A stretch of 64,000 bases of DNA. It comes from an uncultured delta proteobacterium. GTDB taxonomy: Bacteria; Desulfobacterota; Binatia; Binatales; Binataceae. The stretch spans positions 96,001 through 160,000 of the forward strand of contig CAVXXK010000004.1 of assembly GCA_963765675.1 (NCBI GenBank). Direction: 5' to 3'. This document shows, one piece after another, positions 21,011 through 52,526 of the stretch. The notes under the pieces are model-generated. The model was not told the origin of the DNA. It did no database searches and was given only the letters and a program-made list of their open reading frames with translations. The position numbers were made by a program, and so were the translations under genes. Position 1 is the stretch's first letter. Every line of letters starts with the position of its first letter.

Positions 21011-23698
21011 CTACTGCCCGATCGCGGTGACGTTGCAGGTCTCCGCCATCATCGAGGCGTTCGCCGGCAGCGTCAGCACCGACGCTGTCGCCGTCGGATT
21101 GTAGCTCCCGCAACTCGCGAGCAGATTGGGTGCCGCAGAAAACGCGGTCGGAAACGTGAAGGTCTGTGCGCTGCCGGTCTCCTGGTATGCATTCAAATAG
21201 CAAGTCGCCGTCTTGAGCGTCCCCTGCATCGACATCGAGCAGGACGCCGTGCCGGAAGTGCCTGACAGCGAGGTCAAGGTCGGCGCGGAATTGAATACTG
21301 TCGCCTGATTCGGCTCCGTCGAGACGATCGGCGGAACGCTCTGGCCGGCTACTGTGCAGTTGATGCAGTTGAACTCGGGGATCGCACCTCCGTTCACAGA
21401 TTCAATCGGAATAAGACCCGGCGTTGCCGGAAGCGTGCCACGAGAGTTTCCATGGTTGCTCAGCGGCTGACCAAACTGCGAAGTGATGAACGTGGACCCG
21501 TTAGCTTGAGGATTAGTCAATGCGATATTGAAGCTGGTGGTCGTCGAGTCCGGCTCAAAGAACATGTTCAGATAAGTCGCGGCACCGCCATTGGCTATGA
21601 TCGCTCCCCACGGTCCGCTTCCGGAAGCGACTCGCCAATCGGATATGTTCATTAGGCCATAATACGGAGTAGCATATAGGAACATCTGCGCTGATTCTTC
21701 CTGGCCACCTTCTGTCTTTCCATAGGTTCCAATTGAGCCGATCTTATAGAGTATCCCTGGGGCTTCGGCGCTGGTATTCATCATTACGAACGAGCCGATA
21801 TTGTCGAAGTCAAAGCAATAGTCTCGTAAGAGGCACCCCGTGTTGTAAAAAACCTCATTGTAGGTTTCTTGCGAATTGGAATAGACACAGATCTGGCCAC
21901 CGATGCCGTTGGGCGCCGAGCATTGAAGGTCGTCGAAGATCGCGTTTTCGTCGTTAGACAGTCCGCCCAGATTCACACAGGTGCCGACCTCCCCACATTC
22001 CACGTGACGGACTCTGAGCGCGGTGGGCGTTGTCGGAACCGTCGCATTGCTGGCCGGAGCCCCCGGACCGGCATTCGACTGCGATGGGCTACTGGTCGGA
22101 TAGTTATTCTCATCGATCATGGTTCCCGGAGTGTTGCCTACTTGTCCCTCGACCCCGAGATTCTCGATCGTCGTATTGGCGGCATAGTTCATATTGAACA
22201 TGAGGCCGCCCGGAGGTCCGTCCCACCTGAGCTGCGTGTTTGAAACCCCTCCGTTCGGAGCGCGCGACGCACCGGTAATTCCGGCCTGTGCGGTTCCCCA
22301 AAAACTCACTGCCTGCGACATATCGTAGTGCGTCGCGCACGCCGGTAGATAAACCTGACTGTAGTTCGGGGCCGTCCCGGTAAACAGATACGATGCGTTC
22401 ACTGCGGCTTGTATCGCCGGTGAATTGTCATGTCGCATCGTCGTCCCACCGGAGATGGTCTGCGATGGCGCTACCGACAACGTAACATTGCTCCCGCTGA
22501 TCGCCGTGATCTTCGCATCGAGGTCTGACGCTACCGCGCTGGTGCTGGCCTGCTCATCGATCCCATATGGAAACCCATTGTCCCGGTATTGGTAGCTAGT
22601 ATACGGTGCGCGCGTTTGATTGAGCCCGACGATCGCATAGATACTCGATGGAGTGCAGGAAGCGCCGGTACAGCGCCGGATAATCGTCCCGGCCGTGTTC
22701 GCGTCGACCGACCAGGTCACGATGATGCCCGTCATCACCGAGAGCGTTGCCGGCCCGGTCGAGTCGCAAACCGGCGCACTCGCCGCCGAGCGCATTCCAT
22801 TTAAGCCCGAGCCGATCCCCGTCTGACCGATATTCTGAACGCTGTAGCAATAAGTTGTTGAACACGACGGGTTCGAGTTGTTCGGCGTCCCGTCATCGGT
22901 CATGCAGTTGCCGTTCGCTGTGACGGTCGAGCCGGGGATCGGATAATCGGCCTGGACGTACGGAAAAAAGTTGTAGATATAACCGTCATCAGTGACGCTC
23001 GAAATGGTCGGAGTTGTGATAGTGTTCGATGCTCCCGCGGCGTCGAGTTTGACGTACTGGCCGACCTTGAAATCGCTCGATCCGATCCCGCCGCAAACGA
23101 CCGTAGTGGAGCTGGCCGTCGTCGTGCAGCTTACCGTCGAGTCCGAGCAGACCACGCCGTATGCCGGATTAGTCAGATCGAGAACGCCCGCGATATTGAA
23201 TCCGTTGAGCGCCGCCGGCGTGCCGGTTCCGCTCGCAGCATTGACGCCGCTGGTGATTACCGGAGTCTTTCCACCTTCGACTGTGTTGACCGTGCTCGCG
23301 CTCGAGACTCCCGTCACGTCGCCGCCCATCGAAAGACTGCTCGCGCTGGAGGCGCAACTCCACCCGCCGTTCTGGCCCAAAGCCCATGCGCCCGAACCAC
23401 CGCCGGTGCAAGGACTGACCTTCTGGCAATCGACACAGTAAAACATCGTGCCGTCCTGCTCCGCAGGCAGATTCGCAAAACTCAGACTCACGAAGCTGGG
23501 TGAGATCGGCTGTGCACCCGAGAATCGATCGTTGATCGCCTCGCGAAACAACAGCCCCGCATTGGTGCCCGAGAAGTCCGGGATCGGCTGATAAGCGCCC
23601 GACGGCGGAAGATTCTGCGCCACTGTGCCCGCGGGAGCGGCTGCGATCGCCAAACCGAATATCATCGTGGCCGCCAACGCACGAAGTATCTGCTTCAT
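21011..23698 (-). CDS. Large Cys-rich tailspike-like protein with signal peptide
   Basis: Last gene of the tail operon; MKQILRALAATMIFGLAIAAA signal; HDNSPAIQAAVN..VYLPA beta-helix-cap-like motif. Confidence 0.6.
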   Translation of the reverse strand: MKQILRALAATMIFGLAIAAAPAGTVAQNLPPSGAYQPIPDFSGTNAGLLFREAINDRFSGAQPISPSFVSLSFANLPAEQDGTMFYCVDCQKVSPCTGGGSGAWALGQNGGWSCASSASSLSMGGDVTGVSSASTVNTVEGGKTPVITSGVNAASGTGTPAALNGFNIAGVLDLTNPAYGVVCSDSTVSCTTTASSTTVVCGGIGSSDFKVGQYVKLDAAGASNTITTPTISSVTDDGYIYNFFPYVQADYPIPGSTVTANGNCMTDDGTPNNSNPSCSTTYCYSVQNIGQTGIGSGLNGMRSAASAPVCDSTGPATLSVMTGIIVTWSVDANTAGTIIRRCTGASCTPSSIYAIVGLNQTRAPYTSYQYRDNGFPYGIDEQASTSAVASDLDAKITAISGSNVTLSVAPSQTISGGTTMRHDNSPAIQAAVNASYLFTGTAPNYSQVYLPACATHYDMSQAVSFWGTAQAGITGASRAPNGGVSNTQLRWDGPPGGLMFNMNYAANTTIENLGVEGQVGNTPGTMIDENNYPTSSPSQSNAGPGAPASNATVPTTPTALRVRHVECGEVGTCVNLGGLSNDENAIFDDLQCSAPNGIGGQICVYSNSQETYNEVFYNTGCLLRDYCFDFDNIGSFVMMNTSAEAPGILYKIGSIGTYGKTEGGQEESAQMFLYATPYYGLMNISDWRVASGSGPWGAIIANGGAATYLNMFFEPDSTTTSFNIALTNPQANGSTFITSQFGQPLSNHGNSRGTLPATPGLIPIESVNGGAIPEFNCINCTVAGQSVPPIVSTEPNQATVFNSAPTLTSLSGTSGTASCSMSMQGTLKTATCYLNAYQETGSAQTFTFPTAFSAAPNLLASCGSYNPTATASVLTLPANASMMAETCNVTAIGQ

Positions 23699-23714
23699 CA
23701 GTATTCTCACTTGC

Positions 23715-24284
23715 TCAGAACCCTATCGCCAGCCACGAAAAGCCATTGCTCCGTTCGCCGGTGGGGCCAAGCGAAGTGCCGCCCGGAACATCCAGCACGA
23801 AGGTGGCTCCGGTGCGGCTGTATGTCACGACGCTGGCCACCGTGTTGAACCCGCTGGTGCTCGCGTAGACGTTGGTCGCGAGCGGCGGGAGCAATATCGC
23901 ATTGGGAAAGGTTATCGGCCAGGTGACGTTGAACTCTTCGTCGTTTGGAATCTTTTGATCGCTCAGCGGGAAATATCCCCACTGAATAAGCGCCGCGACC
24001 GCGCCCCGGCTGATATCCGTGATCGGGATCGTCAGATAGCCATTGGCCCGAAGAGAACCCGTGAAGCCAGCCATGAACGACTGCAGAATCCCGATGTTCG
24101 CAATGTTGGTGTTCTGGCGTCCGTACAGATAGGCAGTCCGGTTCGCCAGCTGCTGATGAGGCTGATTACTCAGTCCAATTCCGCTGAAGCTGGCGCCTGA
24201 AGCGGCGCCTTCAACTGAATCCGTCGCCTGGATTTCGTAAATTTCATTAGCGGTAAATTCCGGACTGTCTATTAGCGTGGCCAT
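23715..24284 (-). CDS. Short tail fibre/adaptor protein
   Basis: N-terminal SNQPHQQLANRTAYL; C-terminal IQWG..VTWPITFPNA fibre-tip-like motif. Confidence 0.7.
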   Translation of the reverse strand: MATLIDSPEFTANEIYEIQATDSVEGAASGASFSGIGLSNQPHQQLANRTAYLYGRQNTNIANIGILQSFMAGFTGSLRANGYLTIPITDISRGAVAALIQWGYFPLSDQKIPNDEEFNVTWPITFPNAILLPPLATNVYASTSGFNTVASVVTYSRTGATFVLDVPGGTSLGPTGERSNGFSWLAIGF

Positions 24285-24360
24285 GTATGTCCTCTTGTCG
24301 TGACGCCCGCTCTTCCACTGCGCCGGGATCGCGCATCGTTCGAATCTTTCGCCGAACTCC

Positions 24361-24837
24361 TCAGAAAGTCAGTGTCCAGGTTCCCGCAAGCGACATCCCG
24401 GCGGTGAATACTATCGGGCTCAGAGTTTTGCGCGCGAGAATCGGCGTGGGCGCGTTGCCCCCCGGAACTCCAACTCCGGTATGATTCGCGAACAGTGCGA
24501 TCTCCTGGATCGTGATCCCCTGCGCGCCGGTATCCGCCGTAGTCAGGCTCCAGTTAAACGTGACGCTTCCGTTACCGTCCTCCGAATGAGCGTCGACCGG
24601 TTTGTAATACGCCGGTGCGGTAAGTCCGAGATCATTCACCGTTGGCGCATTCGAGCCCGTGCCGAAACCCACCACCGAGCAGAACTCGCCGGTCGTGTCC
24701 CCGCCGAGCAGCGCCGCCAAAGCAGGCAGTCCGGCGTTCACGAACAGGTTTCGCCCCTGATCCTGGTAAATCAATTCGCCGCGCCCGAACACCCGCACCA
24801 TCACCGTTCCGCAAGGCCTATTCATTTCAACCTCCAT
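24361..24837 (-). CDS. Phage baseplate/tail-collar-like protein
   Basis: NLFVNAG..GFGTG..IQEIALF..ARKT pattern; position after tail protein I. Confidence 0.65.
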   Translation of the reverse strand: MEVEMNRPCGTVMVRVFGRGELIYQDQGRNLFVNAGLPALAALLGGDTTGEFCSVVGFGTGSNAPTVNDLGLTAPAYYKPVDAHSEDGNGSVTFNWSLTTADTGAQGITIQEIALFANHTGVGVPGGNAPTPILARKTLSPIVFTAGMSLAGTWTLTF

Positions 24838-25693
24838 TGAGCGTTGCGACGCCGTTTACGATTAGCGCGGGATCAGCGACAACCGGTTCATTCGCGCCGT
24901 AGGTGATTCCGCTATGCACGTAGTGTGCGTTGTATATTGGCGCGATCGGACCGTAGCCGTCAGTGTAGGACGGCGTGGTGATCGCGACGAAAAGTTGCGC
25001 GTCGGACGGCTGCGGTGCCGCGTCGATTTGATATTCGGCGATACCGCCAAGGGTAATGCTGTCATCCGGCGTCGGCGCGGCGTCTCGAACCGGCGCGATT
25101 ACAAACCACAGCGAATCCAGCCACGCGCGCGCGGGCTGAAAAAAATTGATCGCCGCAATTGCGCTTTGCGCCGAACCCGCGGGCACCGGCGCGTCCGTGC
25201 CAAGACTTATCAGAACCCGGAATACCGCCCATCCCTCGGAACTCGGATATGCGGTTCCGCCCCAGCTCGCCTCACCTTCTTGAATTATTACATCGGTCCA
25301 TCCAAGTGACGACAACGCCTGCTTGATCGCCGCCGGTGTTCCACGCTCGCGATGCAGCGCGATAGCTAGCTTCAACAGTTCGCGTTCCGTCGCCGCATTC
25401 GGTGCGACTTCGCCGGCCGCCGAGTCAGGACCGGACAGCGTATCGATATCGGTAAGCGAATCGATATCGGTCAGCGTATCTATACTCAGTCCGACCGGAG
25501 CTGCGAGCTGCCATAGCGGCGACAGAATATCGAACTGCCACGCAAGAAAGACCAGCGCGCCGTCCACTACCGAATCGATTCGATAGATCAACAGCGGCGT
25601 CAGATCGAGCGCCGACAGACGCTCAATCAGCACGAGCAATGCCTGAGTCCGAGTGTCGTTGATCGACGGTGATGCGGATAACTCAGCCATCAT
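24827..25693 (-). CDS. Phage tail protein I (P2 gpI-like)
   Basis: FLAWQFDI..RELLKLAIALHRERGTPAAIKQAL..PARAWL; follows baseplate J. Confidence 0.8.
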   Translation of the reverse strand: MMAELSASPSINDTRTQALLVLIERLSALDLTPLLIYRIDSVVDGALVFLAWQFDILSPLWQLAAPVGLSIDTLTDIDSLTDIDTLSGPDSAAGEVAPNAATERELLKLAIALHRERGTPAAIKQALSSLGWTDVIIQEGEASWGGTAYPSSEGWAVFRVLISLGTDAPVPAGSAQSAIAAINFFQPARAWLDSLWFVIAPVRDAAPTPDDSITLGGIAEYQIDAAPQPSDAQLFVAITTPSYTDGYGPIAPIYNAHYVHSGITYGANEPVVADPALIVNGVATLNGG

Positions 25694-25837
25694 GCGCTCC
25701 GGATAAAGAGGAACACCAGGACATAAGGGAAGCCAAAGACATTAAGACACCAGACGAATGGATCATAGCCGCGCGCCGCGCGCCCCTGTGATCCTTTTCT
25801 TGGCGCGCTCGTGCCTTCATGTTTTGGATCACTTCCC

Positions 25838-27007
25838 TCACGAATGTTCAGTCGATGTGGCGGACGTCAACGATATTGCGGTGCAGTTCGCCCATTGTCC
25901 CGCTGCTAACTGAGTATATGCAGGCTCTGTGAGCGTAATTTCGTAAACGCCCGCTACCGAAAGCGCCGCGACCACCTGGCTCGGCACGATATCGCGCTGA
26001 ATCTTCGCGGCGAGTCCCAGCGCGTATTGCACCGCGGCGTTGTTCACGGCGGTCATGGTCGTATTCGGATCAGCGTCCGAGTACAGCGTCACAGTCGCGG
26101 TAATCTGGTAATCGATTTCGGTTACCGCGAGCACGTTGACCGTGTCAGTCAACGGACGTACCGCATCGGCGCTGAGTGTGGCGGAAACCTTCTCGAGCAG
26201 CGGCGCTCCCGCAACTCCGGCAGCGTTTGGCGCGCTTTGCGGCTGGACGGTTATCGGCCCGGTGAGGATATATACATTGACCTGCCCCGGCGCCGGACTG
26301 ATCACCAACGCGTCGACGATTGACGGATCGACTCCCAATGCAAAAAATCTGTACGCTCCTGCTGGACCTGCCACGCTGAACTGGTTCGGCGCCGCCTGGA
26401 TACGCGAGCGCAGATGGTCATCGGTTTCCGGCGACGAGCCGCCCGCGGTGACTGTGGTATTGCTGACACTTGCAATTGTCGCGCTCGGACTGAGTAGTGC
26501 GTTGACTTGACCCACCAGGTAGCCATTCGCGCCCGATCCCGGTTGGACCGCCGACGCGCCCACCGTGCCCGAAAGCGCGCCCGCGGGAATAACCAGCGCC
26601 GCGGTTGTCGCGAATGAGTATTGCCCATCGCTGGTACCGGCGAGCGTACCCTCGGCGATCGTGATCGCGACCGTCAGCACGCTTGAGAGCGTGAATTCGA
26701 GCGTCGTTGTCGCGCTCTGGGCGGCAAGCCGGGCCACACCCACGAGCTGGCCCAAATAGTCGATCATCGGAAATATCGCGAAGGCAAGAAGGTTTTGTTG
26801 CGCGGCGTACTGAATTGCGTTGCGGACCAGGGATTCGCGGTACGCATAGAGGTTGATCAGAAGACGCTCAACCTGGGCGGGCTGCAAAGTGCGGTCGGCG
26901 GCCGCCTCAAACTCCGCGATCATATCGGCAAGCACGAGATTCGGATCGAGCCCGTCCGAATCATCGACGAATACCGGGGGCGGAAGCGACGGGATTCCTG
27001 CTGCCAT
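25838..27007 (-). CDS. Baseplate J/gp47 family protein
   Basis: AYRE, GGSSPETDDHLRSRI, FSVAGPAGAYRF and VRPLTDTV motifs. Confidence 0.9.
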   Translation of the reverse strand: MAAGIPSLPPPVFVDDSDGLDPNLVLADMIAEFEAAADRTLQPAQVERLLINLYAYRESLVRNAIQYAAQQNLLAFAIFPMIDYLGQLVGVARLAAQSATTTLEFTLSSVLTVAITIAEGTLAGTSDGQYSFATTAALVIPAGALSGTVGASAVQPGSGANGYLVGQVNALLSPSATIASVSNTTVTAGGSSPETDDHLRSRIQAAPNQFSVAGPAGAYRFFALGVDPSIVDALVISPAPGQVNVYILTGPITVQPQSAPNAAGVAGAPLLEKVSATLSADAVRPLTDTVNVLAVTEIDYQITATVTLYSDADPNTTMTAVNNAAVQYALGLAAKIQRDIVPSQVVAALSVAGVYEITLTEPAYTQLAAGQWANCTAISLTSATSTEHS

Positions 27008-27026
27008 CAGTATATATCCTTGCCGT

Positions 27027-27455
27027 TCACTGCGCCGACGCGCCAAGCGAGACGGTAGTGGTCGTAGTAGTGTTTGATCCTGTGCTGGGCGCCCCGGACA
27101 GGTTGAGTTGCCACGTGACGCTCACTTCCAAATGCGCCCCCGACTGAGTAGTCGTATCGAGCACTGGAACCGCGGTGACATTTACCAGCGTGATGCGCGG
27201 TTCCCACAGGCTCAGCGCGGCGGTCACCTCTCGAACGATCGCGGGCAGCGACTGGGACATCGGATGATCGATGTAGCGCCAGATATCGCAGCCGAATGTG
27301 GGTCGCAGCGGATCGCTGCCGAGCGGCGTGGTGAGGATGATGGCAACGCACTGGTCGACATCGGCGACGCCTTGCACCACTTGCCCGATCGCGCCGAGCT
27401 TGAGCGACCAATCCGCCGACGTGATATCGGCGAGTGTGACTGCGCCCGCGCTCAT
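27027..27455 (-). CDS. Baseplate wedge GpW/gp25 family
   Basis: IILTTPLGSDPLRPTFG and WEPRI motifs. Confidence 0.9.
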   Translation of the reverse strand: MSAGAVTLADITSADWSLKLGAIGQVVQGVADVDQCVAIILTTPLGSDPLRPTFGCDIWRYIDHPMSQSLPAIVREVTAALSLWEPRITLVNVTAVPVLDTTTQSGAHLEVSVTWQLNLSGAPSTGSNTTTTTTVSLGASAQ

Positions 27456-27456
27456 C

Positions 27457-28083
27457 CTACTCCGCCTCCACGATCAGGCTCGCGCTGGTGATCGACCCAA
27501 GCCCCGCGGGACAAGTTACCTGGTCGCCCAGGCGCGCGACGCCTTTCAACTGCCCTGCTCCGAGGCGAATCTGCGCCAGCGAGGTTAACTGCGCGTTCCC
27601 CTCCGCGTCGATCGCGATCGAGGCGGCGCCCGCGCCGATCGTCAAGGTGGCGCCGGTCGGCAACGCAATCGTGAGCGCGTGCGCGCCGCCGTCGTACTTG
27701 ATCGATGCACCGTCGCCAAACTGAAGACTCAGTACGTGCGCCGCGCGATCGTACTCAAACGAGGCGCCGTCCTTAAACCCGAGATGCCACTTGTCGGCGC
27801 TGCTGACTGGCGTCGTGTCGGCCGATGAATAGATCGCGCCGAGGACCGCGCCCGCCTCGTCGTGCGCGTCCATCAGGCAGACAACTTGCTCGCCGAGGTC
27901 TGGAATCCAGTAAGCCTTGTCGTTCTGACTCTTGGGCACGACGATTGGCAGCCACCAACTCCGCATCTGATCATAGTCGGCGAACGTGACCCGCACGCGA
28001 GCGAGCGCCGTGTCCTGCTCCTGCACAATCCCGACCCGGAACAAACCGGGTGCCGTCGCGCGGCGATCCTCATGATGCAACAT
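27457..28083 (-). CDS. Baseplate assembly protein V (central spike)
   Basis: RVRVTF..SWWL..WIPDLGEQV..GAVLGAIYS..FKDG..YD; C-terminal VARLGD. Confidence 0.9.
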   Translation of the reverse strand: MLHHEDRRATAPGLFRVGIVQEQDTALARVRVTFADYDQMRSWWLPIVVPKSQNDKAYWIPDLGEQVVCLMDAHDEAGAVLGAIYSSADTTPVSSADKWHLGFKDGASFEYDRAAHVLSLQFGDGASIKYDGGAHALTIALPTGATLTIGAGAASIAIDAEGNAQLTSLAQIRLGAGQLKGVARLGDQVTCPAGLGSITSASLIVEAE

Positions 28084-28091
28084 CGCCTACC

Positions 28092-29099: not shown

Positions 29100-29350
29100 G
29101 ACATGGTACCCGCCGCGCTCGAGGACGACGCGGTCTTCCATGGCGGCAGATCAGTGTTGTGCGAGTTGCTCGCACTTAGAACTGGAACCTGGATCACTAT
29201 TCCGGCCTCGAACACCGGTTCAATCGCCACCAGCGGATTAGCCATGATGATCGGATTGAAGCGCGTCGCGTCGCCATAAAACCTCCACGCGAGCAGGTCC
29301 CAGCGTTCGCCCGCGCGCGTGACATGCGCGATATACTGCGTCGCCGTCAT
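29096..29350 (-). CDS. Tail protein X (LysM-like)
   Basis: GERWDLLAWRFYG..IIMANP..LPPWK. Confidence 0.88.
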   Translation of the reverse strand: MTATQYIAHVTRAGERWDLLAWRFYGDATRFNPIIMANPLVAIEPVFEAGIVIQVPVLSASNSHNTDLPPWKTASSSSAAGTMS

Positions 29351-29386
29351 CGCGCCACGCTCCGCGTGATTGCCGCGGTCGAGATG

Positions 29387-31310: not shown

Positions 31311-31322
31311 CCGCCGATACTC

Positions 31323-43592: not shown

Positions 43593-43634
43593 TCCCGGCC
43601 GTTACTCACCAACCCGCCCGGACCGAGGCACATC

Positions 43635-45018: not shown

Positions 45019-45231
45019 GAGGCCGCCTCCTGATGTTTGCGGTCGGATTCACCTACTTTGCGGAACCATCCAGCGCCGCAAAGATGGCACGGCTCGGGCA
45101 GCCGCATAGTGGTAAGCAAAAACTGATACCCACAAGCTTCGCACCGCCATTCCCAATAAATACTCATTCAACCCTCAGTCGATTATATTAATTAACTAAT
45201 CACTCAAATTAGCTAATAGCTTCTGCCGATA

Positions 45232-45309
45232 CCCTCTCCCTCCGGGAGAGGGCAAGCGGCGCGATGCTTGCGATTCTTTTTCGCAAGCATCGTGACGCGC
45301 GGGTGAGGG
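45232..45309 (+). repeat. REP-like repeat, family A, between terminase and portal
   Basis: Near-identical to the 42143 copy. Confidence 0.85.
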
Positions 45310-45334
45310 CGTGGGCGCTGCTCTGCAATCTCCT

Positions 45335-46801
45335 TCACCAAGCCCCCTCCCCAAACCGAACCGGCGCAGCCCCGCGCACCGGCGTATAGGCAATCTCCGC
45401 CACCTCCATTCGCGAGGCCGCGAACGCGAGCGCCGCCGCGACCGCGGAGTCTCCATGCCGCGGCATCCCGTCCGAGCCGCGAGCGCGCGCGTCGCCGACC
45501 TTCGCGATTCCCTGCTCGACCACGATCGCGCGATGGTCGGCCAGAATATCGGCGTCGCGCGGCAGCTCGATCGCGCCGTCCTCGAACGCCGCCTTGTAGC
45601 GCGGCATATTCTCGCGGTACCACTCGGCCGAGAGCATCACCTGCGCGATCCGCGCTCCGTAGCGCTGCGCCGCGGTCTCGGCGAGGTACTGGCCGTTACC
45701 CCGCGCGTCCATCGCGCCGGCGATAAACCTCGGCAGACGGTCTGCCAGGTAGAATAGAATCTGTTCCTGCTGCCGAAACGGAAGATTGCGCAGCTCCACC
45801 ACCATCGCGGTTCGGCGAGTAAGGTCCGGCGCAATCTGCATCACCCAGATTACAGTCAGATCGCCCGAGCGTCCGAAATCCTCGCCGAAGCAAGTTGCCG
45901 ACGCGCTGTCGAGCGCTCCCAGAGCCGACGCGAGACGATCTTCGCACCACGCCTCGGTCTCCGAGCACCGAACCTCCTCCGGCTTGAACGCAAAATCGTC
46001 GGCGACCGACCATCGGAGCACCGGAATTCCCTCGCGCATCCGCGATTCGATCGCAAGCGCACTCAGGAACGTTCCCGCCGACGCGCGCGGGATGCACATC
46101 AGCTCCTCGCCGGCATTGTCGGCGTAGAGCTCGAAGATCTCGCGCCGCCAGTCCGCCTCGCCCTCGGGCGACCATTCGCGCCCCAGCGTCTCGCAGATCT
46201 TTCGGTACAGTCCCTGCGCGAGCGCGTCGTCGAGGGTCACGCGATGGATCGAATACGGCAGGCGTCCGGCGCGGACGTCGCACACGAGCTGATTGAACGC
46301 GTTGGCGGCGCCGTTGTGGGTCGAGATGATCCGCACCAGCCCACCCCACATCGTAAACGCGAGCGCGGCTTTCAAAAGGCCCGCCAGATCATCGTGAAAG
46401 GCGGCCTCGTCGATCACGGCGCAGCCCTGCTTGCCGCGCAGATTCGACGGACGCGACGACAGCGCGACGATCTTGTGCCCCGACGCGAAGCGAATCCGGT
46501 AGGCAAGGATGTCGCGCGCTTCGTCGGTGACGGCGATCTCCTCGATCGCGCGCGCCGCCTTGTCGAATCGCCGCGCCCACATCGCGGCCGTCTCGACGAA
46601 TTCGAGCGCCATGTCCTTGTTGTAGCCGATGTACCAGCCGTCCATCCCGCCGCGTCCCGCGACTGCGGCGCCGAGCGCGCGATCGGCGGCCTCGGTCCAG
46701 GTGAGCCCGATACGCCGCGACTTCTCGGCGACTTTCACCTGCGCGCGATCGGCAATCCATCGCCGCTGATAGGGCAGGAGAATCGACAATCCATCGTTCA
46801 T
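45335..46801 (-). CDS. Mu gp28-like terminase large subunit
   Basis: LLPYQRRW, EKSRRIGLTW, VIDEAAFH, ISTHNG, GEDFGRSGD, DARGNG and HGDSA motifs. Confidence 0.92.
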   Translation of the reverse strand: MNDGLSILLPYQRRWIADRAQVKVAEKSRRIGLTWTEAADRALGAAVAGRGGMDGWYIGYNKDMALEFVETAAMWARRFDKAARAIEEIAVTDEARDILAYRIRFASGHKIVALSSRPSNLRGKQGCAVIDEAAFHDDLAGLLKAALAFTMWGGLVRIISTHNGAANAFNQLVCDVRAGRLPYSIHRVTLDDALAQGLYRKICETLGREWSPEGEADWRREIFELYADNAGEELMCIPRASAGTFLSALAIESRMREGIPVLRWSVADDFAFKPEEVRCSETEAWCEDRLASALGALDSASATCFGEDFGRSGDLTVIWVMQIAPDLTRRTAMVVELRNLPFRQQEQILFYLADRLPRFIAGAMDARGNGQYLAETAAQRYGARIAQVMLSAEWYRENMPRYKAAFEDGAIELPRDADILADHRAIVVEQGIAKVGDARARGSDGMPRHGDSAVAAALAFAASRMEVAEIAYTPVRGAAPVRFGEGAW

Positions 46802-46812
46802 TTCAGTCTCCA

Positions 46813-47837
46813 TCAAAATTCCGTGCGCTCTCTGAACGCGCCCACTTGCCGCATCATCTCGTAGAGTCTCTCGGCGTGCTCTTCGAGCGCCTGCGCGACC
46901 GCGCGCGAGATCCCGCTCTCGCCGGGAGCAGTGGCTCCGGGAGGCAGATTGACCGTGATCGACGGCGACGAGTTGATCGTGATCGGCGCGGCCACGTTCG
47001 CGCTTCGGTTCCTGCCGGACGCACCAAAATCTCGCACTCGCTCGCGCGACGAATTTGCGAGGTCCGCGCGCAACGAGAATTCGTCAGCGGAAGGCGGTGC
47101 GCGCAAGCTTGCGAGCACGCGACGGATTCGCGCTGGCAGCATCGCGATCGCGCTGGCGGTTTCGCGGGTGCGCGTCGCGCCGCGATATCGCGCACCAGGC
47201 TCGATGGCTTCAGAAGCCATCGCAGGGTCTCAGATTGCCGGTCGGCCGCGATTGTACGGCGCGCGACGCCGCTCGCCGTCAGTACCGCGGCGAGATTGAG
47301 CGCTCGCGGCGCGGACGATATGTCGGGTTCGGAGATTGCGCTGCCGCCCGCTGCGCGGCCGCTCTGCTGCGAATCGGATTGCAGGTTCGCGCGCAACGTG
47401 AGTTGCCGCACGCGAGCGACCGCGATATTGCCTGCACGCACAGCGGCGAGCGCGCGCGTCATCGCCGCTCGCGGCGAGGGCGATCGGCGCTCCGGGCTTT
47501 CACCCTCTGAGCGAGTGCGATCACTTTGCCCTGCGACGATCGGTGCGTGCTGCGCGCGTCCGGCCGCGAGAACCGATGCCAGAGGCCGAGCGCTGCGCAG
47601 CATCGAGGTGACGCCGCGCTCTTGCGGACCTATCGCCTCAGCGGCTGAAGCGGCGCTTTGCGAGGACTTTGCGCGCGCGGGAACTTCGAGCGCATGCAGC
47701 ACTTCGGCAAGCGCATTCGTGCGTGCGCGAACAGATGCGCCCACGCGCGCGAAGGCCGCCAGGATATTCGCGGTCCGCGCGAACGACGCGATCCGTTCCT
47801 CGACGCTCGGGCGGTGCGGATTCAGACCTTCATTCAT
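46813..47837 (-). CDS. Ala/Arg-rich gene or gene pair with tape-measure-like C-terminus; frame change near 47230
   Basis: GAGGAG RBS at the 47837 ATG; C-terminus ITINSSPSITVN..QALEEHAERLYEMMRQ..RERTEF. Confidence 0.5.
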
Positions 47838-47870
47838 CGCAAGGCTCCTCGCGATACGCTCGCGGCCTCA

Positions 47871-48341
47871 TCAGAGCTTGATTTCGAGCAGCGCGCTGCG
47901 AATCTTCTCGGCCGCGTCCGGCGTGAGCCCGGATTCGCGCGCTTCCTCGACTCGCGCCGCCGCCGCGTCAACGCCGGCGTTCACGCGCGATCCGGCCTCG
48001 ACGCGCCATCGTTCCGTCTCGATCCCCTGCTTGCTCACCGCACAGATGGTTCTGGCGATCGCGTGGATATCAGGCGAATTTGTTCCTTTACGCTTCGCGT
48101 TGAGCATCTTCTGCATGATCGTGAACAGATGCGTTTGCACCATCCGAGCTAGTGCGCGCTCCATCGTTTCATCGTCGCCTGCGGTTTCCTCGGCGATCAC
48201 GCGCGCCTCTGCGATCGAGAGCCGCACTGCTTCGAGTTGTTCCGCGAAATCTTTTGAATCGTCGTGAGATTTCGCTTCGGCCCCTTTCTCTTTGCCGGCC
48301 CTTTTTTTCTCGTGATTCTCGTCCGTGCTGTTTTTAGCCAT
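47871..48341 (-). CDS. Mu gp27-like (DUF3486) small-terminase candidate, N-terminally reduced
   Basis: ARVIAE..DD..MVQTHLF and GLTPDAAEKIRSALL motifs; position upstream of large terminase. Confidence 0.72.
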   Translation of the reverse strand: MAKNSTDENHEKKRAGKEKGAEAKSHDDSKDFAEQLEAVRLSIAEARVIAEETAGDDETMERALARMVQTHLFTIMQKMLNAKRKGTNSPDIHAIARTICAVSKQGIETERWRVEAGSRVNAGVDAAAARVEEARESGLTPDAAEKIRSALLEIKL

Positions 48342-48347
48342 CGCCGA

Positions 48348-48662
48348 TTACCAGTACTTGCGCGGACGGGCGACGCCGGCCGGCGCCGCCTGGTTGTACT
48401 CGACCATGTCGACGCCGCGCGCGGTGAGCCGAGCGAACCAGGTGCCGGTGTCCTGGCCCTCGAGCTCGATCAGATCGAGGTCGGCGAGGTAGCTTAGCTC
48501 GCGGCGAACCGCGTTGAGTGAAAACGGCAGCCGGATATCGATCAACACGCGCCAGATGATCTGTTCCGACACCACGCTTGGACGTCCGGCATCCACCACC
48601 CGCAAAATCCGCCAGCGGGCTTCCTCGCGCTGCTTTTGTTCGAGGTCGATTGCATCAGCCAT
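48348..48662 (-). CDS. Mu gp26-like winged-helix protein
   Basis: RWRIL..VRRELSYL..ARLTARGVDMVEY..GVARP. Confidence 0.78.
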   Translation of the reverse strand: MADAIDLEQKQREEARWRILRVVDAGRPSVVSEQIIWRVLIDIRLPFSLNAVRRELSYLADLDLIELEGQDTGTWFARLTARGVDMVEYNQAAPAGVARPRKYW

Positions 48663-48948
48663 AGAGTCTTTCCTTCAGAGTCGCGATTTCCTGGCGCATC
48701 TCTTCGCGCATGGCGTCGAGCTTCGCGTCGAGCGTGGCGCTGAACCTGATCCAGTCCTCGCGCCTGACGTATTCGAGCGGGAGAGACGCGCGCAGTTCGT
48801 AAAGTCCGCGCTCAATTTCGCTCCAGCGGGCCGAGTCGCGCAGCACGGCTTGCTGATGGCGCTCGAGAATCCAGCGCACCGTGCCCACGTTCAGGCCCGC
48901 CAGGGTTAATCCCGCGGTCAGGAAGGCCGCCACCGCGTCCCAGCTCAC
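48655..48948 (-). CDS. Mu-like membrane/coiled-coil protein (gp25 position)
   Basis: N-terminal TM; LPLEYVRREDW..KLD. Confidence 0.7.
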   Translation of the reverse strand: MSWDAVAAFLTAGLTLAGLNVGTVRWILERHQQAVLRDSARWSEIERGLYELRASLPLEYVRREDWIRFSATLDAKLDAMREEMRQEIATLKERLYG

Positions 48949-49289
48949 CTGACACCGCCGCGGTTGTCGGCGCGGTCATCCGGGCGATTTTCGGGACGGC
49001 CGTCTGGACGAATTTCGCCGCGGCCATCGGCGAGCCGCCGCTCGTCGTTCAGCTCGGCGGGATCGGGTTCGGTGGTTCGTTTGATCGCGCACGCACCCGC
49101 CATCGCCAGCATCACGACCCCCAGCCCGCGCCCATAGGCGTCGGCGTCGGAGGCGCCGAAATGGCGCGTGATCCCGACCTGGATACACCAGAACACGATG
49201 TAGGATAATGCGCCCAAGACACCGACGACCCGCGCCGCGTCGTAGGTGAGATTGTCCTTGCCCGTGAGGATGTCACTGAGAAATTTCAC
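48945..49289 (-). CDS. Putative holin
   Basis: Two TM segments and a charged C-terminus; within lysis cassette. Confidence 0.55.
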   Translation of the reverse strand: MKFLSDILTGKDNLTYDAARVVGVLGALSYIVFWCIQVGITRHFGASDADAYGRGLGVVMLAMAGACAIKRTTEPDPAELNDERRLADGRGEIRPDGRPENRPDDRADNRGGVR

Positions 49290-49593
49290 CGGGATGCTTC
49301 CCTTGCGCCGGCGGAGCGGCGCAGGCCCGCAGCAACTGATCGCGCTCGACCACCGCGGCCTTCAGGACCACCACCGACGCGGCGTAGGCGCGAATCGTGT
49401 CGGCCGGCGCGGAGTCCGGCGTAAGGCTCGCGATCCGGAGCGCGGGCCGCGGCGGCGCTGCCGCGGCGCAATACACCGGCTCGGGAATCGGGACGCTGAC
49501 TTTCATCGGCACTGCGATCGGCGCCGCCGCACGCGCGCATCCGCCGATCGCCGCCGCAATCCACATCGCGATCAATCTGCGCCGCTTTACCAT
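49273..49593 (-). CDS. Putative o-spanin (Rz1-like lipoprotein)
   Basis: MVKRRRLIAMWIAAAIGGC lipobox; Pro-rich; overlaps end of upstream gene. Confidence 0.65.
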   Translation of the reverse strand: MVKRRRLIAMWIAAAIGGCARAAAPIAVPMKVSVPIPEPVYCAAAAPPRPALRIASLTPDSAPADTIRAYAASVVVLKAAVVERDQLLRACAAPPAQGKHPGEISQ

Positions 49594-49994
49594 TGGCCTA
49601 ACTCCCGCGCCTGCGCGTTGCCCCACTTGATCGCCGCGTCGCATCCGGACGGGACCGCCGCTTGCGCGATCTGCGCGGCCTGCGCGCCGGCCTTTTCCAT
49701 CCCGGCGGACGCTTGAGCGGCGAGGTTGGCTTCGCGCGTGTCGGCCGCCTGTGCGACGCTCTGTGCCGACGCGCGTATCGCCTCGACCGCCGCGTTCTGC
49801 TGGGCGACCGCGCTCTGGCAGGCGGCGTTCTCGGCCTGAGCGGTGGCGAGTTGTGATTGAAACGCGGTAGCCTCTTTGCGCGCCGAGTCGCGCTCGTGAA
49901 TCAGCACGACGGCTCCCAGAGCCACTGCGCCGAGCACCGCCAGAAGAGCGAGCGGCCGCCAATTCGCCGCGAAAAGTGCCAGTAAGGCAGGCAT
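49587..49994 (-). CDS. Putative i-spanin (Rz-like)
   Basis: N-terminal TM followed by Ala/Gln coiled coil with two Cys. Confidence 0.65.
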   Translation of the reverse strand: MPALLALFAANWRPLALLAVLGAVALGAVVLIHERDSARKEATAFQSQLATAQAENAACQSAVAQQNAAVEAIRASAQSVAQAADTREANLAAQASAGMEKAGAQAAQIAQAAVPSGCDAAIKWGNAQARELGQW

Positions 49995-50006
49995 CGCGAT
50001 CGCGCC

Positions 50007-50312
50007 CTACTTCGCCGCCGCGGGCTTTGCGGCCGCCGCCGCGCTCGACTGGATCGCGTTTGCGAGTTTCTCGGTCGCTTGCGCATGATGCTCGATCGCG
50101 GCGCTATGCCGCGTTACCGCCGCCGTTGCGGGCGCCGCCGCAGCGGTGCTCGCCACCGCGGACTCGACCGAGGTCAGACGCGAATCGAGCGCCGTAACCA
50201 TCGCGACCAGGTCGGCGACCAGCTTGCGGCCGAACAGCGTGCCGAGCGCGAATCCGCCGGCGAGCGCGATCACGCCGGCCGCCAACGCGGTCATCTTCAG
50301 TGCATCAGTCAT
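50007..50312 (-). CDS. Small membrane protein in lysis cassette
   Basis: GGAGG RBS; N-terminal TM. Confidence 0.55.
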   Translation of the reverse strand: MTDALKMTALAAGVIALAGGFALGTLFGRKLVADLVAMVTALDSRLTSVESAVASTAAAAPATAAVTRHSAAIEHHAQATEKLANAIQSSAAAAAKPAAAK

Positions 50313-50351
50313 CGGAAACCTCCGTCGTGCGACGGTCGTTGATGCGGGCGT

Positions 50352-50915
50352 TTATTCGTAGGCTCGATTGAGCCATCCGGCCAGAAATTCCTGGTCGCCG
50401 TCCGGACCCGCGTCGCGCGCGAACGCAGCCATCACGCGGTAGTAACCGGCGGCTTCCGAGCGCGTCGCCGCCATCAGGGCCAGAGGCTCGGCCGCGTGCG
50501 CGGCGGCAGCGGTTTCCGGTCCGAGGACGTTGTCTTCAGTCACGCGGCGGCCGACCGCGCGCAGCGCTCGCTGCAGGCATCCGATCGCATGGGCCGGCCC
50601 GATATTTACCGCCAGATCGAAAATCTTGGCGGCGATCGCGCCGGGCGCCGCGTCGAAACCGAACGGACGCCAGTAGTCGCGATAGTAAATCGCGATCGCG
50701 TCGGCACGGGTCAGATTCGCGATGTCGAGCGTCGGGTACTCGCGCGCGGAAATTCCAAAGCGGGTGATTCCGCCCGGATCGTCGGGTGCGGTTTCGATGC
50801 CGCCCTCGTCGCCAAGGACGCGGTTTACCGCGGCGACAAACTCGGGCGAATAGGATTCGGTCAGCGATTCCGGGAGGCCAGATGCGTCGTCCACTGCAAG
50901 ACTCACTGCGGGCAA
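50352..50915 (-). CDS. Endolysin, glycoside hydrolase family 108
   Basis: EGG..PDDPGGITRFGI, IYYRDYW, FDLAVNIG and FLAGWLNR motifs. Confidence 0.9.
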   Translation of the reverse strand: MPAVSLAVDDASGLPESLTESYSPEFVAAVNRVLGDEGGIETAPDDPGGITRFGISAREYPTLDIANLTRADAIAIYYRDYWRPFGFDAAPGAIAAKIFDLAVNIGPAHAIGCLQRALRAVGRRVTEDNVLGPETAAAAHAAEPLALMAATRSEAAGYYRVMAAFARDAGPDGDQEFLAGWLNRAYE

Positions 50916-50958
50916 CGCGGGCGTTTGGGCGGCGTGGATCGGAGCCGCCAGGAAGTAC

Positions 50959-51002
50959 AGTTTAGCGCAAACGCAAAAGTTTCGTAAGGCCGAGCAGTTC
51001 AG
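50959..51002 (-). promoter_or_regulatory. Putative activator-dependent late promoter (lysis/packaging operon)
   Basis: CTGAACTGCTCGGCCTTA-N20-TAAACT; matches the motif at 36951-36994. Confidence 0.7.
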
Positions 51003-51364
51003 ACCGGTTTTTTGCCCGATAATACTTTATAGACATACCTCTCCGTGCAGCCTAATGTTCTCGCGATTCTGGACACGCTGACGCCCGCTGTGCGTAGCGC
51101 AATTATCTGCGCGCGGCGCAGCACGCGGTCGGGATGAGCCGGAATCATCACGCGGTCGCCGCCAAACGAACGCGCAAGCCGCGCGGCCGCGCCGATTCCG
51201 ATCGATCGCGTGATCTGATCACTCGACGAAACTTTGTTCGGAATATAAACCCGCCGTCCGCCGAAATCGCGCGCCAGATGCGACGTCGCCTTCATCCCGA
51301 TCACCCGCGTGATATCCCTAATCAGCGACTCGCGGCTCAGGATGTAGCCCTCATGCGCGGGCAC
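50999..51364 (-). CDS. Mor/C family transcription activator
   Basis: Two IG..A..LAR.FGG..V.IP motifs plus C-terminal HTH (VSRIARTLGCTERYVYKVL); start uncertain. Confidence 0.8.
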   Translation of the reverse strand: MPAHEGYILSRESLIRDITRVIGMKATSHLARDFGGRRVYIPNKVSSSDQITRSIGIGAAARLARSFGGDRVMIPAHPDRVLRRAQIIALRTAGVSVSRIARTLGCTERYVYKVLSGKKPV

Positions 51365-51417
51365 GCGAGCAACGCGGGCAAGTAGCTGGAACAGCCTGCT
51401 ACTATGTCCGGCGGCTC

Positions 51418-51642
51418 TCACAGGCTGTACGCGGCGCGCAGATTCGGCGGGATCGAACCGATCCCACGATCGCGATCGTACACCACGCGCCATTTGAGCT
51501 CCGCGACTTCGGCGATGCACAGGGGACAGAGACCGCGACGCCTCGTCGCGACACCGTACCGCACTGGCGCGCGGCACCACAGGCACTTGGTCATCCGGTC
51601 CGCGGACCGGACGTGGCGGCCGCGATGGTCCTGCTGGAGCAT
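51418..51642 (-). CDS. Small putative zinc-finger protein
   Basis: CLWC-x15-CPLC; lies between repressor and activator. Confidence 0.5.
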   Translation of the reverse strand: MLQQDHRGRHVRSADRMTKCLWCRAPVRYGVATRRRGLCPLCIAEVAELKWRVVYDRDRGIGSIPPNLRAAYSL

Positions 51643-51860
51643 GTGGACTTCCAGACGGCATTCGCCGCGAGGCTCGGACGTGAAGGCGGCCGTGCGAAAG
51701 AACTTCGGACTCCGCGAACATCAGCGGCAGGTCGAGCGAGTCGATGCAGGGGAAGGGTTGTGGATAATCGGCGGGCGCATCCAATCCAAAGCTTGCTTTG
51801 CCTGTCATCCCCATGCCAAAAACAGCTATTCCACAGATGGTGGATATTAGTCAACACAAA

Positions 51861-52526
51861 GTGTTTACACACGAAGACGCCGAATTCCGATCCCGCCTGG
51901 CCCAGGTGCTGGCCAAGTTCGGTTCGGTGGCCGCGCTGGCGCGCGCGATCGGCGTGTCCAACAACGCGATTTACAAGTGGCTGCAGGGGGACGGACAGCC
52001 AAATCTGTCCAACCTGGTGGGGCTTTCGCGCGCGGCCCGCGTCTCGGTCGAATGGCTCGCGACCGGGCGCGGCGCGGCCGCGCGCAGAGGGGCGGCGGCG
52101 CCGCGCGCGCTCGGAGAAGGATACACGTTCATGCCGCGTTTCGACGCTCGAGGCGGCGCGCGCGGCAAGCAAGGACTGATGAACGATCAGATCGTGGACA
52201 GTCTGGCGCTCAGCAGCGAATGGGTGCGAACGCGGCTGCATGCCGAGCCGCGCAATCTGCTGCTGCTCGAGATCGCGGGCGACACGATGGCGCCGACGCT
52301 GAACGCGACCGACCTCGCGATAGTGGATTTGGGAGAGCCGCGCTTTCGGCGCGACGCGATTTACGTGCTGCGCCATGCGGACGAGCTTGCGGTGCGCAGG
52401 TTGCAGCGCCGTCCCGACGGCAAGTTGATCATCAAGTGCGACAATCCAGCATACGAGCCGGTAGTAGCGGCGCCCGAGACGATCGCGATCATCGGCAACG
52501 TGATCTGGTCAGGCACGCGCCGGTAG
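51861..52526 (+). CDS. CI/LexA-like repressor (HTH + S24 domain with substituted catalytic dyad)
   Basis: ALARAIGVSNNAIYKW..VSVEWLATG; GDTMAPTL, AVRRLQ and DNPAY; start may be up to 63 nt upstream. Confidence 0.88.
   Translation: MFTHEDAEFRSRLAQVLAKFGSVAALARAIGVSNNAIYKWLQGDGQPNLSNLVGLSRAARVSVEWLATGRGAAARRGAAAPRALGEGYTFMPRFDARGGARGKQGLMNDQIVDSLALSSEWVRTRLHAEPRNLLLLEIAGDTMAPTLNATDLAIVDLGEPRFRRDAIYVLRHADELAVRRLQRRPDGKLIIKCDNPAYEPVVAAPETIAIIGNVIWSGTRR

Follow-up and report, generated by a model that had tools for sequence, protein, structure and literature searches.

Evidence that a Mu-like phage cluster was domesticated in Candidatus Binataceae and may act as a gene transfer agent

The stretch of 64,000 nucleotides analysed here, called the window, covers positions 96,001 to 160,000 of contig CAVXXK010000004.1 and belongs to the metagenome-assembled genome (MAG) G000 of Candidatus Binataceae (source genus g1). 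It contains a cluster of Mu-like phage genes at window positions 23715-52526 (28.8 kb), of which about 22.1 kb is phage-derived (23715-36942 and 43635-52526). We conclude, with a probability of roughly 85%, that the cluster is a former Mu-like phage that was domesticated and now forms a vertically inherited, host-maintained particle-making module. Domestication is well supported because the cluster occurs family-wide in single copy with shared flanks, tracks the host protein RpoB, is under purifying selection and has stayed intact in both halves in one relative, G005, where it is split. A first-pass annotation of this DNA had proposed a domesticated system resembling a gene transfer agent (GTA). 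The domestication was borne out by our analysis, whereas the GTA function itself stays a prediction; GTA-like packaging of host DNA is the best reading, and we give it about an even chance.

The genes were annotated by Pfam and PHROG profile matches, and the proteins of the transposable myovirus BcepMu were compared with G000 by tblastn. The late genes are on the minus strand in the order known from Mu, and a CI/LexA-type repressor gene is divergently oriented on the plus strand. The cluster is colinear with BcepMu gp25-gp51, and when all BcepMu proteins were searched, the homologues of gp25-29, 36, 37, 39, 40 and 45-51 were confined to the window. The Mu-like gene content and order read earlier from the sequence were thereby confirmed. 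The closest cultured phage by the large terminase TerL was BcepMu with 56% identity, whereas the capsid was at most 44% identical to any cultured phage, B3/RS138-type phages being the closest. All components of the Mu-type head module (gp27, gp28, the portal gp29, the gpI protease, the gpT capsid and gp36) were present. The baseplate and hub genes (24827-29350) are homologues of BcepMu gp46-gp51 with 31-48% identity and ratios of nonsynonymous to synonymous substitution rates (dN/dS) of 0.07-0.16. Frame analysis located a slippery heptamer, A AAT TTT, at 30453-30459 in the chaperone gene, and the nested scaffold start was found at the internal ATG codons 189/190 of the protease gene (about window position 36378) with a GAGGA-type Shine-Dalgarno motif upstream. 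Both signals persist, as had been claimed. A string search of TerL did not find the canonical Walker A string, and the claim of intact catalytic motifs was not confirmed.

The capsid gene was found in 107 of the 151 genomes of the family, almost always as a single match without stop codons. It was present in 76 of 95 genomes with a completeness of at least 90%, and in 22 of 30 genera, including all ten genomes of the source genus and all 33 of genus g181. Outside the family, 11 of 199 genomes of the phylum had a capsid match, with 35-47% identity. The repressor was detected in 113 of the 151 family genomes and was 10-25 kb away from the capsid gene whenever the two were on the same contig. Unpublished genomes (G010, G243, G267, G283, G295, G308 and G357) are included in the counts of family presence, PF02914, repressor and flank synteny, and unpublished loci (L007, L018, L163, L053, L055, L065, L067, L069, L171 and L180) enter the comparisons of locus layout, intactness of open reading frames (ORFs), repressor dyad, tape-measure profile and block structure of the small terminase TerS. 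The Mantel and tree tests, the final dN/dS values, those of the tape measure and the TerS alignment A2 were done with no unpublished genomes, and no conclusion depends on unpublished genomes alone. In G004 of the source genus (contigs G004:C22 and G004:C36), a second contiguous copy of the cluster was observed with about 70% DNA identity and a capsid of 73% identity, which could be a contamination of the bin from another genus or a transfer.

The position of the cluster in the chromosome is shared among relatives. The left neighbour in the window is a Mur ligase gene (19007-20977) and the right neighbour an ABC-transporter operon (52973-57100). In six genomes of the source genus (G001, G003, G004, G005, G009 and G010), the left flank, consisting of racemase, purE and Mur ligase genes, shares a contig and a colinear order with the tail genes. 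It also runs into the tail genes, with a longer spacer, in the genera g4 (G013) and g14 (G023), and at locus L039 of a g181 genome the Mur ligase gene comes next after the fibre genes. On the right side, the repressor gene abuts the ABC operon in four genomes of the source genus; host genes directly abut the repressor, in locus L203 too. The descent of the cluster was analysed in 38 public genomes, where seven concatenated cluster proteins (2349 columns) were compared with RpoB. The distances correlated with a Mantel r of 0.848 (0.919 without two divergent copies), a value that was reached in 0 of 5000 permutations. The maximum-likelihood trees of the cluster and of RpoB had 17 of 35 splits in common; when labels were permuted 1000 times, the number never exceeded 3. 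Seven of the eight multi-member genera were monophyletic in both trees, and the grouping of g1, g175 and g4 recurred in both. Exceptions were the copies of G014, G020 and G244, which are more divergent and rearranged.

A 6.7-kb island (36943-43634) separates the protease gene of the head module from the portal gene of the packaging module. In more divergent genera the genes are contiguous from the repressor through Mor, lysis, TerS, TerL, portal, protease, capsid and tail to J, and in the source genus and a wider clade 6-10 kb of other genes lie between portal and protease. In genus g172, where the capsid was found in none of six genomes, the Mur ligase gene is followed by the ABC gene (65% identity) and the same plus-strand genes. 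Since g172 has these genes side by side without phage genes, the island consists of native neighbours and is not phage cargo. The g172 loci L268 (G312:C158) and L269 (G296:C427) display the empty configuration, with the ABC ATPase, the 220-amino-acid gene and the methyltransferase region beside the Mur ligase; it is ancestral or arose by deletion, depending on the placement of g172. The island genes had dN/dS values of 0.13-0.24. Compared with all relatives, G000 has a deletion of about 3.7 kb between the ABC ATPase and NHL-repeat genes, as a consequence of which the ABC ORF runs antisense into the NHL gene.

Two families of dispersed repeats of 60-170 bp occupy intergenic sites inside the cluster (36976-37037, 37205-37260, 42130-42220 and 45220-45330) and next to the repressor (52795-52970). 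They resemble repetitive extragenic palindromes or miniature inverted-repeat transposable elements (REP/MITE-like) and occur in well over 100 copies across the contigs of G000. The presence of host genes and repeats within the cluster, already noticed in the first reading of the sequence, was thus verified by the g172 comparison and by the repeat families. In G005 the locus is split: contig C1 has the tail-head half next to the Mur ligase gene, and C2 has the packaging-lysis-regulator half next to the ABC operon, both being intact. Transfer as one unit is therefore excluded in this genome. The island, the dispersed repeats and the split in G005 document a long residence in the host.

Selection was followed by comparing G000 with up to nine public genomes of the same genus, taking the median dN/dS per gene at dS values of 0.3-1.0. 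The medians of all cluster genes were 0.03-0.25, and those of the flanking host genes 0.035-0.21. The head and packaging genes were as constrained as the tail genes, with values of 0.065-0.21 for capsid, portal, TerL and TerS. With G005 as the outgroup, G000 had 93 and G009 112 unique amino-acid changes over 5881 sites (p 0.18), so the G000 copy is not evolving faster. ORF intactness was scored in 80 related loci, the best capsid relatives, with at least 90% coverage and no stop codon as the criterion. Most genes were single open frames. Intact copies numbered 81 of 83 for the capsid, 66 of 69 for the tube, 65 of 70 for the sheath, 18 of 18 for the portal and 17 of 18 for TerL; U, V, W and J scored lower, partly through divergence. 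In G009:C2 (L094-L095), gpD, sheath and gp37 each aligned in two frames, which may reflect assembly errors in a four-contig MAG rather than real frameshifts. Taken together, conservation (107/151), synteny (shared flanks), tree congruence (Mantel r 0.848) and dN/dS (0.03-0.25) all favour the domestication that had been put forward.

The functions of a transposing phage were largely missing. The MuA core domain PF02914 was found in 0 of 41 genomes (G000 and 40 relatives). As a positive control, it matched in one of five other Binataceae genomes; since a 743-amino-acid MuA-type ORF was recovered there, the search works in this family. That ORF lies in G043 (G043:C5:50000-80000, L090-L093) near scattered V, TerS, gp26 and protease fragments and a 30%-identical repressor, and the region appears to be the remnant of a different, scrambled Mu-like prophage. 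The BcepMu transposase gp09, GemA, MuF, MuG, the 846-amino-acid tape measure and the long fibre gave no tblastn match in G000, and the MuB-like gp08 gave a weak match and nothing stronger. Of 11 tyrosine integrase matches in the genome, none was on the source contig. In a crude test for terminal repeats, the regions 20950-24400 and 52500-52980 shared no 11-mers in inverted or direct orientation. The absence of MuA and MuB, claimed at the outset, was confirmed; no transposase module was found in the genome, and the comparison of the two ends gave no terminal repeats as Mu ends.

The same losses were seen among 80 IMG/VR contigs related by TerL. Fifteen contigs with a TerL of 63-75% identity had the Binataceae layout without GemA, MuF and MuG. 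When the TerL identity was 62% or less, nearly all contigs that reach past the portal carried MuF and many also GemA or MuG, like genuine phages; three of these contigs have a transposase within 10 kb. The 43.9-kb contig L200 (IMGVR_UViG_3300005861_000343), with TerL and capsid both 63% identical, has kept MuF and MuG; among free phages, it may be the one most closely related to the domesticated cluster. One Binataceae-type IMG/VR contig has folD and a permease gene beside its repressor. We take the ancestor to have been a Mu/BcepMu-type transposable myovirus that lost the transposase, MuB, GemA, MuF and MuG.

The tape measure was recognised solely by alignment of the spacer between TerS and TerL. 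In other genera, a fast-evolving ORF of 277-480 amino acids is found between the chaperone/RRM gene (RRM, RNA recognition motif) and gpU. The 80 C-terminal residues of this ORF at 53 loci, all with the gene at this canonical position, were used to build a profile, which matched the BcepMu tape measure gp44 with an E value of 1.7e-9, the next best being 0.2. Among 1571 six-frame ORFs, the same profile matched the TerS-TerL ORF of the source genus (E 1e-12 to 2e-14). At the canonical place between chaperone/RRM and gpU, G000 has no tape measure; PF10145 had no match in G000, and tblastn with two canonical-position ORFs gave nothing better than E 0.2. A PHROG scan of the tape-measure-like ORFs gave weak phrog_5690 matches (E 0.012 and 0.034). 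The gene is relocated between TerS and TerL in all eight genomes of the source genus that cover the region and also in g4 and g175, and g14 has the canonical arrangement. The rearranged tape-measure position suspected earlier was therefore real, with a 1-nt deletion in G000 in addition. In the other six complete copies of the genus the ORF is open, with 344-369 amino acids and 35-65% identity. Its dN/dS was 0.38-0.68 overall and 0.16-0.36 in the C-terminal fifth; what is kept is the length and not the sequence, which fits a tape measure. Public contigs from four runs (150-370 nt, low depth) that match the region 43000-53000 had no indel at 47235/47236, where their cover is thin; the 1-nt deletion may be real or an assembly error. 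The minus-strand ORF 46854-47837 was rejected as a separate gene, since it is part of the frameshifted tape-measure gene, of which it makes up the first two thirds from the N-terminus.

The small terminase is reduced, as had been suspected. TerS of G000 and G005 matched PF11985 from position 49-50 on (G000: 49-172 of 173), and TerS of BcepMu, of G013 (g4) and of locus L079 matched from positions 1-4. Alignment A2 showed that an N-terminal block of about 45 residues is missing; it is absent from all six complete copies of the source genus and present in g4, g175, g14, g173, g15 and the phage contigs. From the general architecture of small terminases, this block may bind DNA. Its loss in the source genus would then make the initiation of packaging sequence-independent there. 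All known GTA small terminases lack the N-terminal domain, according to a passage of the review PMC11841831.

The regulatory region lies at the right end. The start of the repressor (51798) and the start of the Mor gene (51325) are 472 bp apart, which agrees with the short repressor-to-activator distance of less than 0.5 kb noted before, but the gap holds a conserved 74-amino-acid zinc-ribbon-like ORF. Tblastn matches to it were found in 25 of 34 repressor loci among the matches listed; it belongs to no Pfam or PHROG family. The ORF occupies the place where Mu has ner and, with its CxxC..CxxC motif, may be a regulator. Short inverted repeats in the gap were indistinguishable from chance. Compared with the PDB, the repressor matched the N-terminal domain of P22 C2 at default settings, and its S24 half matched UmuD' with an E value of 0.011, which was used for placing the dyad alone. 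In LexA, CI and UmuD, serine is the nucleophile and lysine the general base. The repressors of other genera have GDSM and VKR(L/I/V), which align with GDSM and VKKL of UmuD'. The lysine is replaced by arginine (VRRL for VKRL) in all eight copies of the source genus and in one g179 genome, and the serine by threonine (GDTM for GDSM) in G000 alone, so the altered dyad of the first-pass annotation held up, as a genus-wide arginine and a threonine in G000. Because of the change of the catalytic lysine, induction probably no longer proceeds through RecA-stimulated self-cleavage.

The features of the locus are compiled in Table 1. The RRM gene, which encodes a bona fide RRM_1 RNA-binding protein within the tail operon, has the chaperone and gpU as its neighbours, and 55 of 80 related loci have it at this position; its product has seven host paralogues in the genome, none more than 51% identical. 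The 899-amino-acid protein next to the fibre gene was 82% identical in G005 and 43% in G009, whose neighbouring genes are 92-97% identical. This hypervariable protein may diversify as a component of the surface or of the receptor side, and it may not be phage-derived or belong to the element. The minus-strand ORFs 41304-42239 and 42282-43280 in the island were rejected as antisense artefacts, the real genes being on the plus strand according to the frame analysis of GC content at third codon positions (GC3). No Rfam families and no tRNA genes were found in the window.

Table 1. Features of the cluster and its host-gene island in window coordinates (aa, amino acids; HTH, helix-turn-helix)
Feature	Position	Strand	Basis and remarks
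899-aa protein, N-terminal signal peptide	21011-23710	-	no Pfam/PHROG match; between fibre gene and Mur ligase gene, likewise in L039
Short tail-fibre protein, 189 aa, gp53-like C-terminal domain	23715-24284	-	PF21882 E 4.7e-8; PHROG tail-fibre families; dN/dS 0.055
phrog_5417 protein, fibre/baseplate accessory	24361-24837	-	PHROG E 4.7e-20; dN/dS 0.076
P2 gpI-like baseplate	24827-25693	-	Pfam; BcepMu gp46-gp51 group
gpJ baseplate	25838-27046	-	Pfam; BcepMu homologue 43% identical; dN/dS 0.085
gpW/gp25	27027-27455	-	Pfam
gpV spike	27457-28083	-	Pfam; BcepMu homologue 48% identical; dN/dS 0.067
gpD	28092-29141	-	Pfam; phrog_52 E 5.7e-78
gpX-like	29096-29350	-	Pfam
gpU-like tail protein	29387-29959	-	PF06995 E 3.9e-25; BcepMu gp45 36% identical
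RRM-type RNA-binding protein	29968-30258	-	PF00076 E 1.2e-22; dN/dS 0.087
Tail assembly chaperone	30286-30752; frame A 30399-30752, -1 extension to 30286	-	phrog_21320 E 4e-22; weak Phage_TAC_7 match; dN/dS 0.134
Tail tube	30792-31310	-	PF04985 E 2.3e-38; BcepMu gp40 39% identical; dN/dS 0.033
Contractile sheath	31323-32861	-	PF04984/PF17482; BcepMu gp39 45% identical; dN/dS 0.081
Head-tail joining, Gp37-like	32903-33724	-	PF09646 E 1e-30
Head-tail joining, Mu Gp36-like	33728-34162	-	PF07030 E 1.2e-34
Major capsid gpT	34317-35264	-	PF10124 E 4.1e-96; single copy in genome; dN/dS 0.065
phrog_1731 virion protein	35296-35778	-	PHROG
Mu gpI-type head protease with nested scaffold start	35800-36942	-	PF10123 E 1.3e-77
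ABC ATPase, island	37126-38409	+	Pfam; truncated by G000-specific deletion of about 3.7 kb
NHL-repeat protein, island	38243-41128	-	Pfam
Island gene (220-aa gene region)	41406-42068	+	GC3 frame analysis
Island gene	42285-42767	+	GC3 frame analysis
Methyltransferase, island	42792-43592	+	Pfam; GC3 frame analysis
Mu-type portal	43635-44816	-	PF06074 E 8.4e-100; dN/dS 0.079
Large terminase TerL	45335-46816	-	phrog_2 E 5.5e-31; BcepMu gp28 56% identical over 92% of length; dN/dS 0.084
Short tape-measure homologue	46813-47837	-	profile and alignment
Small terminase TerS, Mu gp27 family	47871-48341	-	PF11985; dN/dS 0.214
gp26-like	48348-48662	-	phrog_436/phrog_462 matches for the gp26/gp25 pair; BcepMu gp26 38% identical
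gp25-like lipoprotein	48655-48948	-	BcepMu gp25 37% identical
Membrane protein	48945-49289	-	adjoins gp25-like gene
Probable Rz1-like lipoprotein	about 49273-49623	-	lipobox read from translation
Rz-like spanin	49587-49994	-	phrog_214 E 5.8e-5
Holin candidate, small membrane protein	50007-50312	-	putative transmembrane segments read from translation
GH108 endolysin	50352-50915	-	PF05838/PF09374, phrog_315; dN/dS 0.183
Mor/C-family late activator, 108 aa	50999-51325	-	PF08765 E 2.2e-11; phrog_836; dN/dS 0.147
74-aa zinc-ribbon-like ORF	51418-51642	-	CxxC..CxxC; GC3 0.81; dN/dS 0.249
CI/LexA-type repressor, HTH and S24 peptidase	51798-52526	+	PF00717, PF01381; dN/dS 0.138

If the cluster works as a GTA-like system, relief of the CI-type repressor would allow the expression of the zinc-ribbon gene and of Mor, and Mor would switch on the lysis, packaging, head and tail operons. 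TerL and TerS would then fill procapsids by the headful mechanism from chromosomal DNA, since the element cannot replicate. A short contractile tail would be joined, its length being set by the tape measure of about 350 amino acids, which predicts a tail of about 50 nm. Endolysin, spanins and holin would release the particles, and host DNA would be delivered to relatives. Particle production, the packaged content and the delivery are predictions from the gene set. More tentatively, and with somewhat less than even confidence, we propose a GTA of independent evolutionary origin. It would be the first to descend from a Mu-like myovirus of the transposable kind, and also the first that has a contractile tail and is spread family-wide in the uncultured Binatus phylum. 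The ancestor of the family would have lost transposition, MuF and MuG while the tape measure shrank; one clade would then have gained the invasion of host genes and the relocation of the tape measure beside the terminase genes, and one genus would finally have lost the N-terminal block of TerS and the catalytic lysine of the repressor. If this is true, the living genera are a natural time series of a phage becoming a host organelle for DNA export. Among the papers listed by full-text literature searches, we found no Mu-derived GTA and no link of Binatota or Binataceae to GTAs or domesticated prophages, in accordance with the expectation that none has been described.

Several observations weigh against a maintained module with GTA-like action. 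The cluster is dispensable, as it was not found in 44 of the 151 family genomes, including all six of g172. Locus L039 (G299, g181; 14202-14626) has lost the region from the end of the tube gene through gpW, and the rearranged copies of G014, G020 and G244 (L148-L150, L144) are without the chaperone and tape-measure region; because of this deletion and these rearrangements, the element decays in some lineages. MuF and MuG are needed by Mu, and their homologues are missing family-wide. The tape measure, with about 350 amino acids, has less than half the length of the 846 amino acids in BcepMu, and in G000 only, its frame is broken by the 1-nt deletion between 47235 and 47236. The earlier idea that the losses fell on selfish functions while particle functions were kept thus stood in part: transposition is lost and the late genes are kept, but MuF and MuG are missing, the tape measure is short and frameshifted, and the cluster is lost or scrambled in some lineages. 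The changed dyad of the repressor could just as well indicate that the element is locked and cannot be induced. When 50900-53000 was scanned in a simple way for sigma-70 promoters, 0 sites were found, so the promoter-like motifs reported before were not recovered. A search for RNA runs that contain window 27000-36999 gave none. In a structure model of the full-length TerS of G013, with a pLDDT (predicted local distance difference test) of 75, the block that is absent from g1 has two short helices, and a Foldseek search of the TerS model against the PDB gave no match at E <= 0.001, the top rows being TetR-type regulators with E > 1. Finally, heads of the size of Mu take about 37-39 kb, and such a head could hold the whole 29-kb locus, unlike those of classical GTAs.

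A particle of the PBSX type would be released by lysis and kill with its contractile tail, DNA packaging being a by-product without productive delivery. Constraint is strongest in the genes of the tail and baseplate (tube 0.033, V 0.067, J 0.085), receptor-side genes are variable, as seen with the 899-amino-acid protein (43% identity of G000 to G009), MuF, which the BcepMu record calls 'minor head protein and DNA pilot', is absent, and like PBSX the cluster is conserved, chromosomally fixed and repressor-controlled. A pure tailocin role, however, would not need the constraint on capsid (0.065), portal (0.079) and TerL (0.084), the loss of the TerS N-terminus is hard to explain if packaging is irrelevant, and no killing or immunity gene was recognised, so that we regard this function as unlikely. 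Packaging might also start in situ from a pac site at or beside the locus and proceed by successive headfuls, resulting in regional transfer as in lateral transduction. Mu itself begins packaging at a pac site close to its left end and continues into the adjoining host DNA, the element can neither excise nor replicate, and g4, g15 and other genera retain a TerS that matches the full gp27 model (positions 2-172); this mode may apply to genera whose TerS retains the N-terminal block. In the source genus that block is gone, the search for a pac site or terminal repeat gave nothing (the two ends have 0 11-mers in common), and in G005 the packaging genes are far from the head-tail genes. We consider pac-directed packaging distinctly unlikely.

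Still less likely is a functionless defective prophage relic in G000, which would decay slowly after its usefulness or be kept for its repressor, RRM or lysis genes. The lesions specific to G000 (the tape-measure frameshift, the exchange of serine for threonine in the repressor and the 3.7-kb deletion in the island) would fit, as would the losses and scrambling in other lineages, and enterobacteria are known to carry defective prophages that were domesticated and are under purifying selection. Against decay stand the dN/dS values of 0.03-0.25 in all 30-odd genes at dS up to 1, a G000 branch without acceleration and ORFs that are intact across genera. An autonomous temperate phage that spreads horizontally and prefers one integration site might be suggested by the classification of related contigs as viral in IMG/VR and by the MuA-type transposase elsewhere in one Binataceae genome. 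Yet neither the locus nor its immediate surroundings contain a transposase, integrase or replication gene, the genome has no cognate one, and the host genes abutting the repressor, the cophylogeny with RpoB, the host island and the split locus all speak against it; this explanation is close to refuted. In conclusion, a domesticated module, possibly with GTA-like packaging, remains our preferred reading.

Among known systems, the contractile sheath, tube and baseplate are shared with tailocins (R-type pyocins) and extracellular contractile injection systems (eCIS), which are likewise domesticated. Tailocins and eCIS have no capsid, portal or terminase genes, as the first-pass annotation also stated, whereas the Binataceae cluster has them, as constrained as the tail genes. 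BcepMu and Mu have the same order from lysis to baseplate (TerL 56%, sheath 45%, J 43% and V 48% identical), a Mor-family activator, a nested protease/scaffold (BcepMu gp32/gp33), the chaperone frameshift and the tape-measure C-terminus. In contrast to these phages, the Binataceae cluster has no transposase, MuB, GemA, MuF, MuG or long tail fibre, its tape measure has about 350 instead of 846 amino acids, its capsid is nearer to B3/RS138-type phages (44%), and the locus, which is immobile, is broken up by host genes. The PBSX-like prophages of Bacillus resemble it in having a contractile tail, a head and an Xre/CI-type repressor and in being non-replicating, fixed and conserved. For PBSX, killing and the packaging of 13-kb host DNA were shown experimentally, whereas the functions of the Binataceae cluster are predicted; it belongs to an unrelated phage lineage and host phylum. 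A PBSX-like region is called 'highly conserved in Bacillus strains' in a passage of PMC8347963.

GTAs have been defined as domesticated defective phages (in a passage of PMC8987985), and a paper on Mu-like prophages of Desulfovibrio piger mentions them in passing in one part of its text (PMC12724379). The cluster resembles RcGTA-type GTAs (other, independent GTAs are BaGTA, VSH-1, Dd1 and VTA) in that it combines phage genes for structure, packaging and lysis and has none for replication or integration. Further likenesses are the vertical inheritance over a large clade under purifying selection, described for GTAs in PMC5721377 and PMC6821227, and perhaps, in the source genus, a TerS without the N-terminal domain (PMC11841831, in the passage cited above). 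The locus can be split, as in G005, and VSH-1 and RcGTA are described as multi-locus. It differs from the RcGTA type in that the ancestor was a Mu/BcepMu-type contractile myovirus and not an HK97-type siphovirus, in that it retains its own CI-type repressor and Mor, and in that the head capacity may exceed the cluster size; its particles, packaging and transfer are predicted. GTAs are known from a handful of independent origins, and none is known to be Mu-like. If the GTA-like function is real, the Binataceae cluster would represent a new GTA origin with a different particle architecture, it would mean that transposable phages can be domesticated whole, and a widespread uncultured family of soil and peat would have a built-in route of gene exchange.

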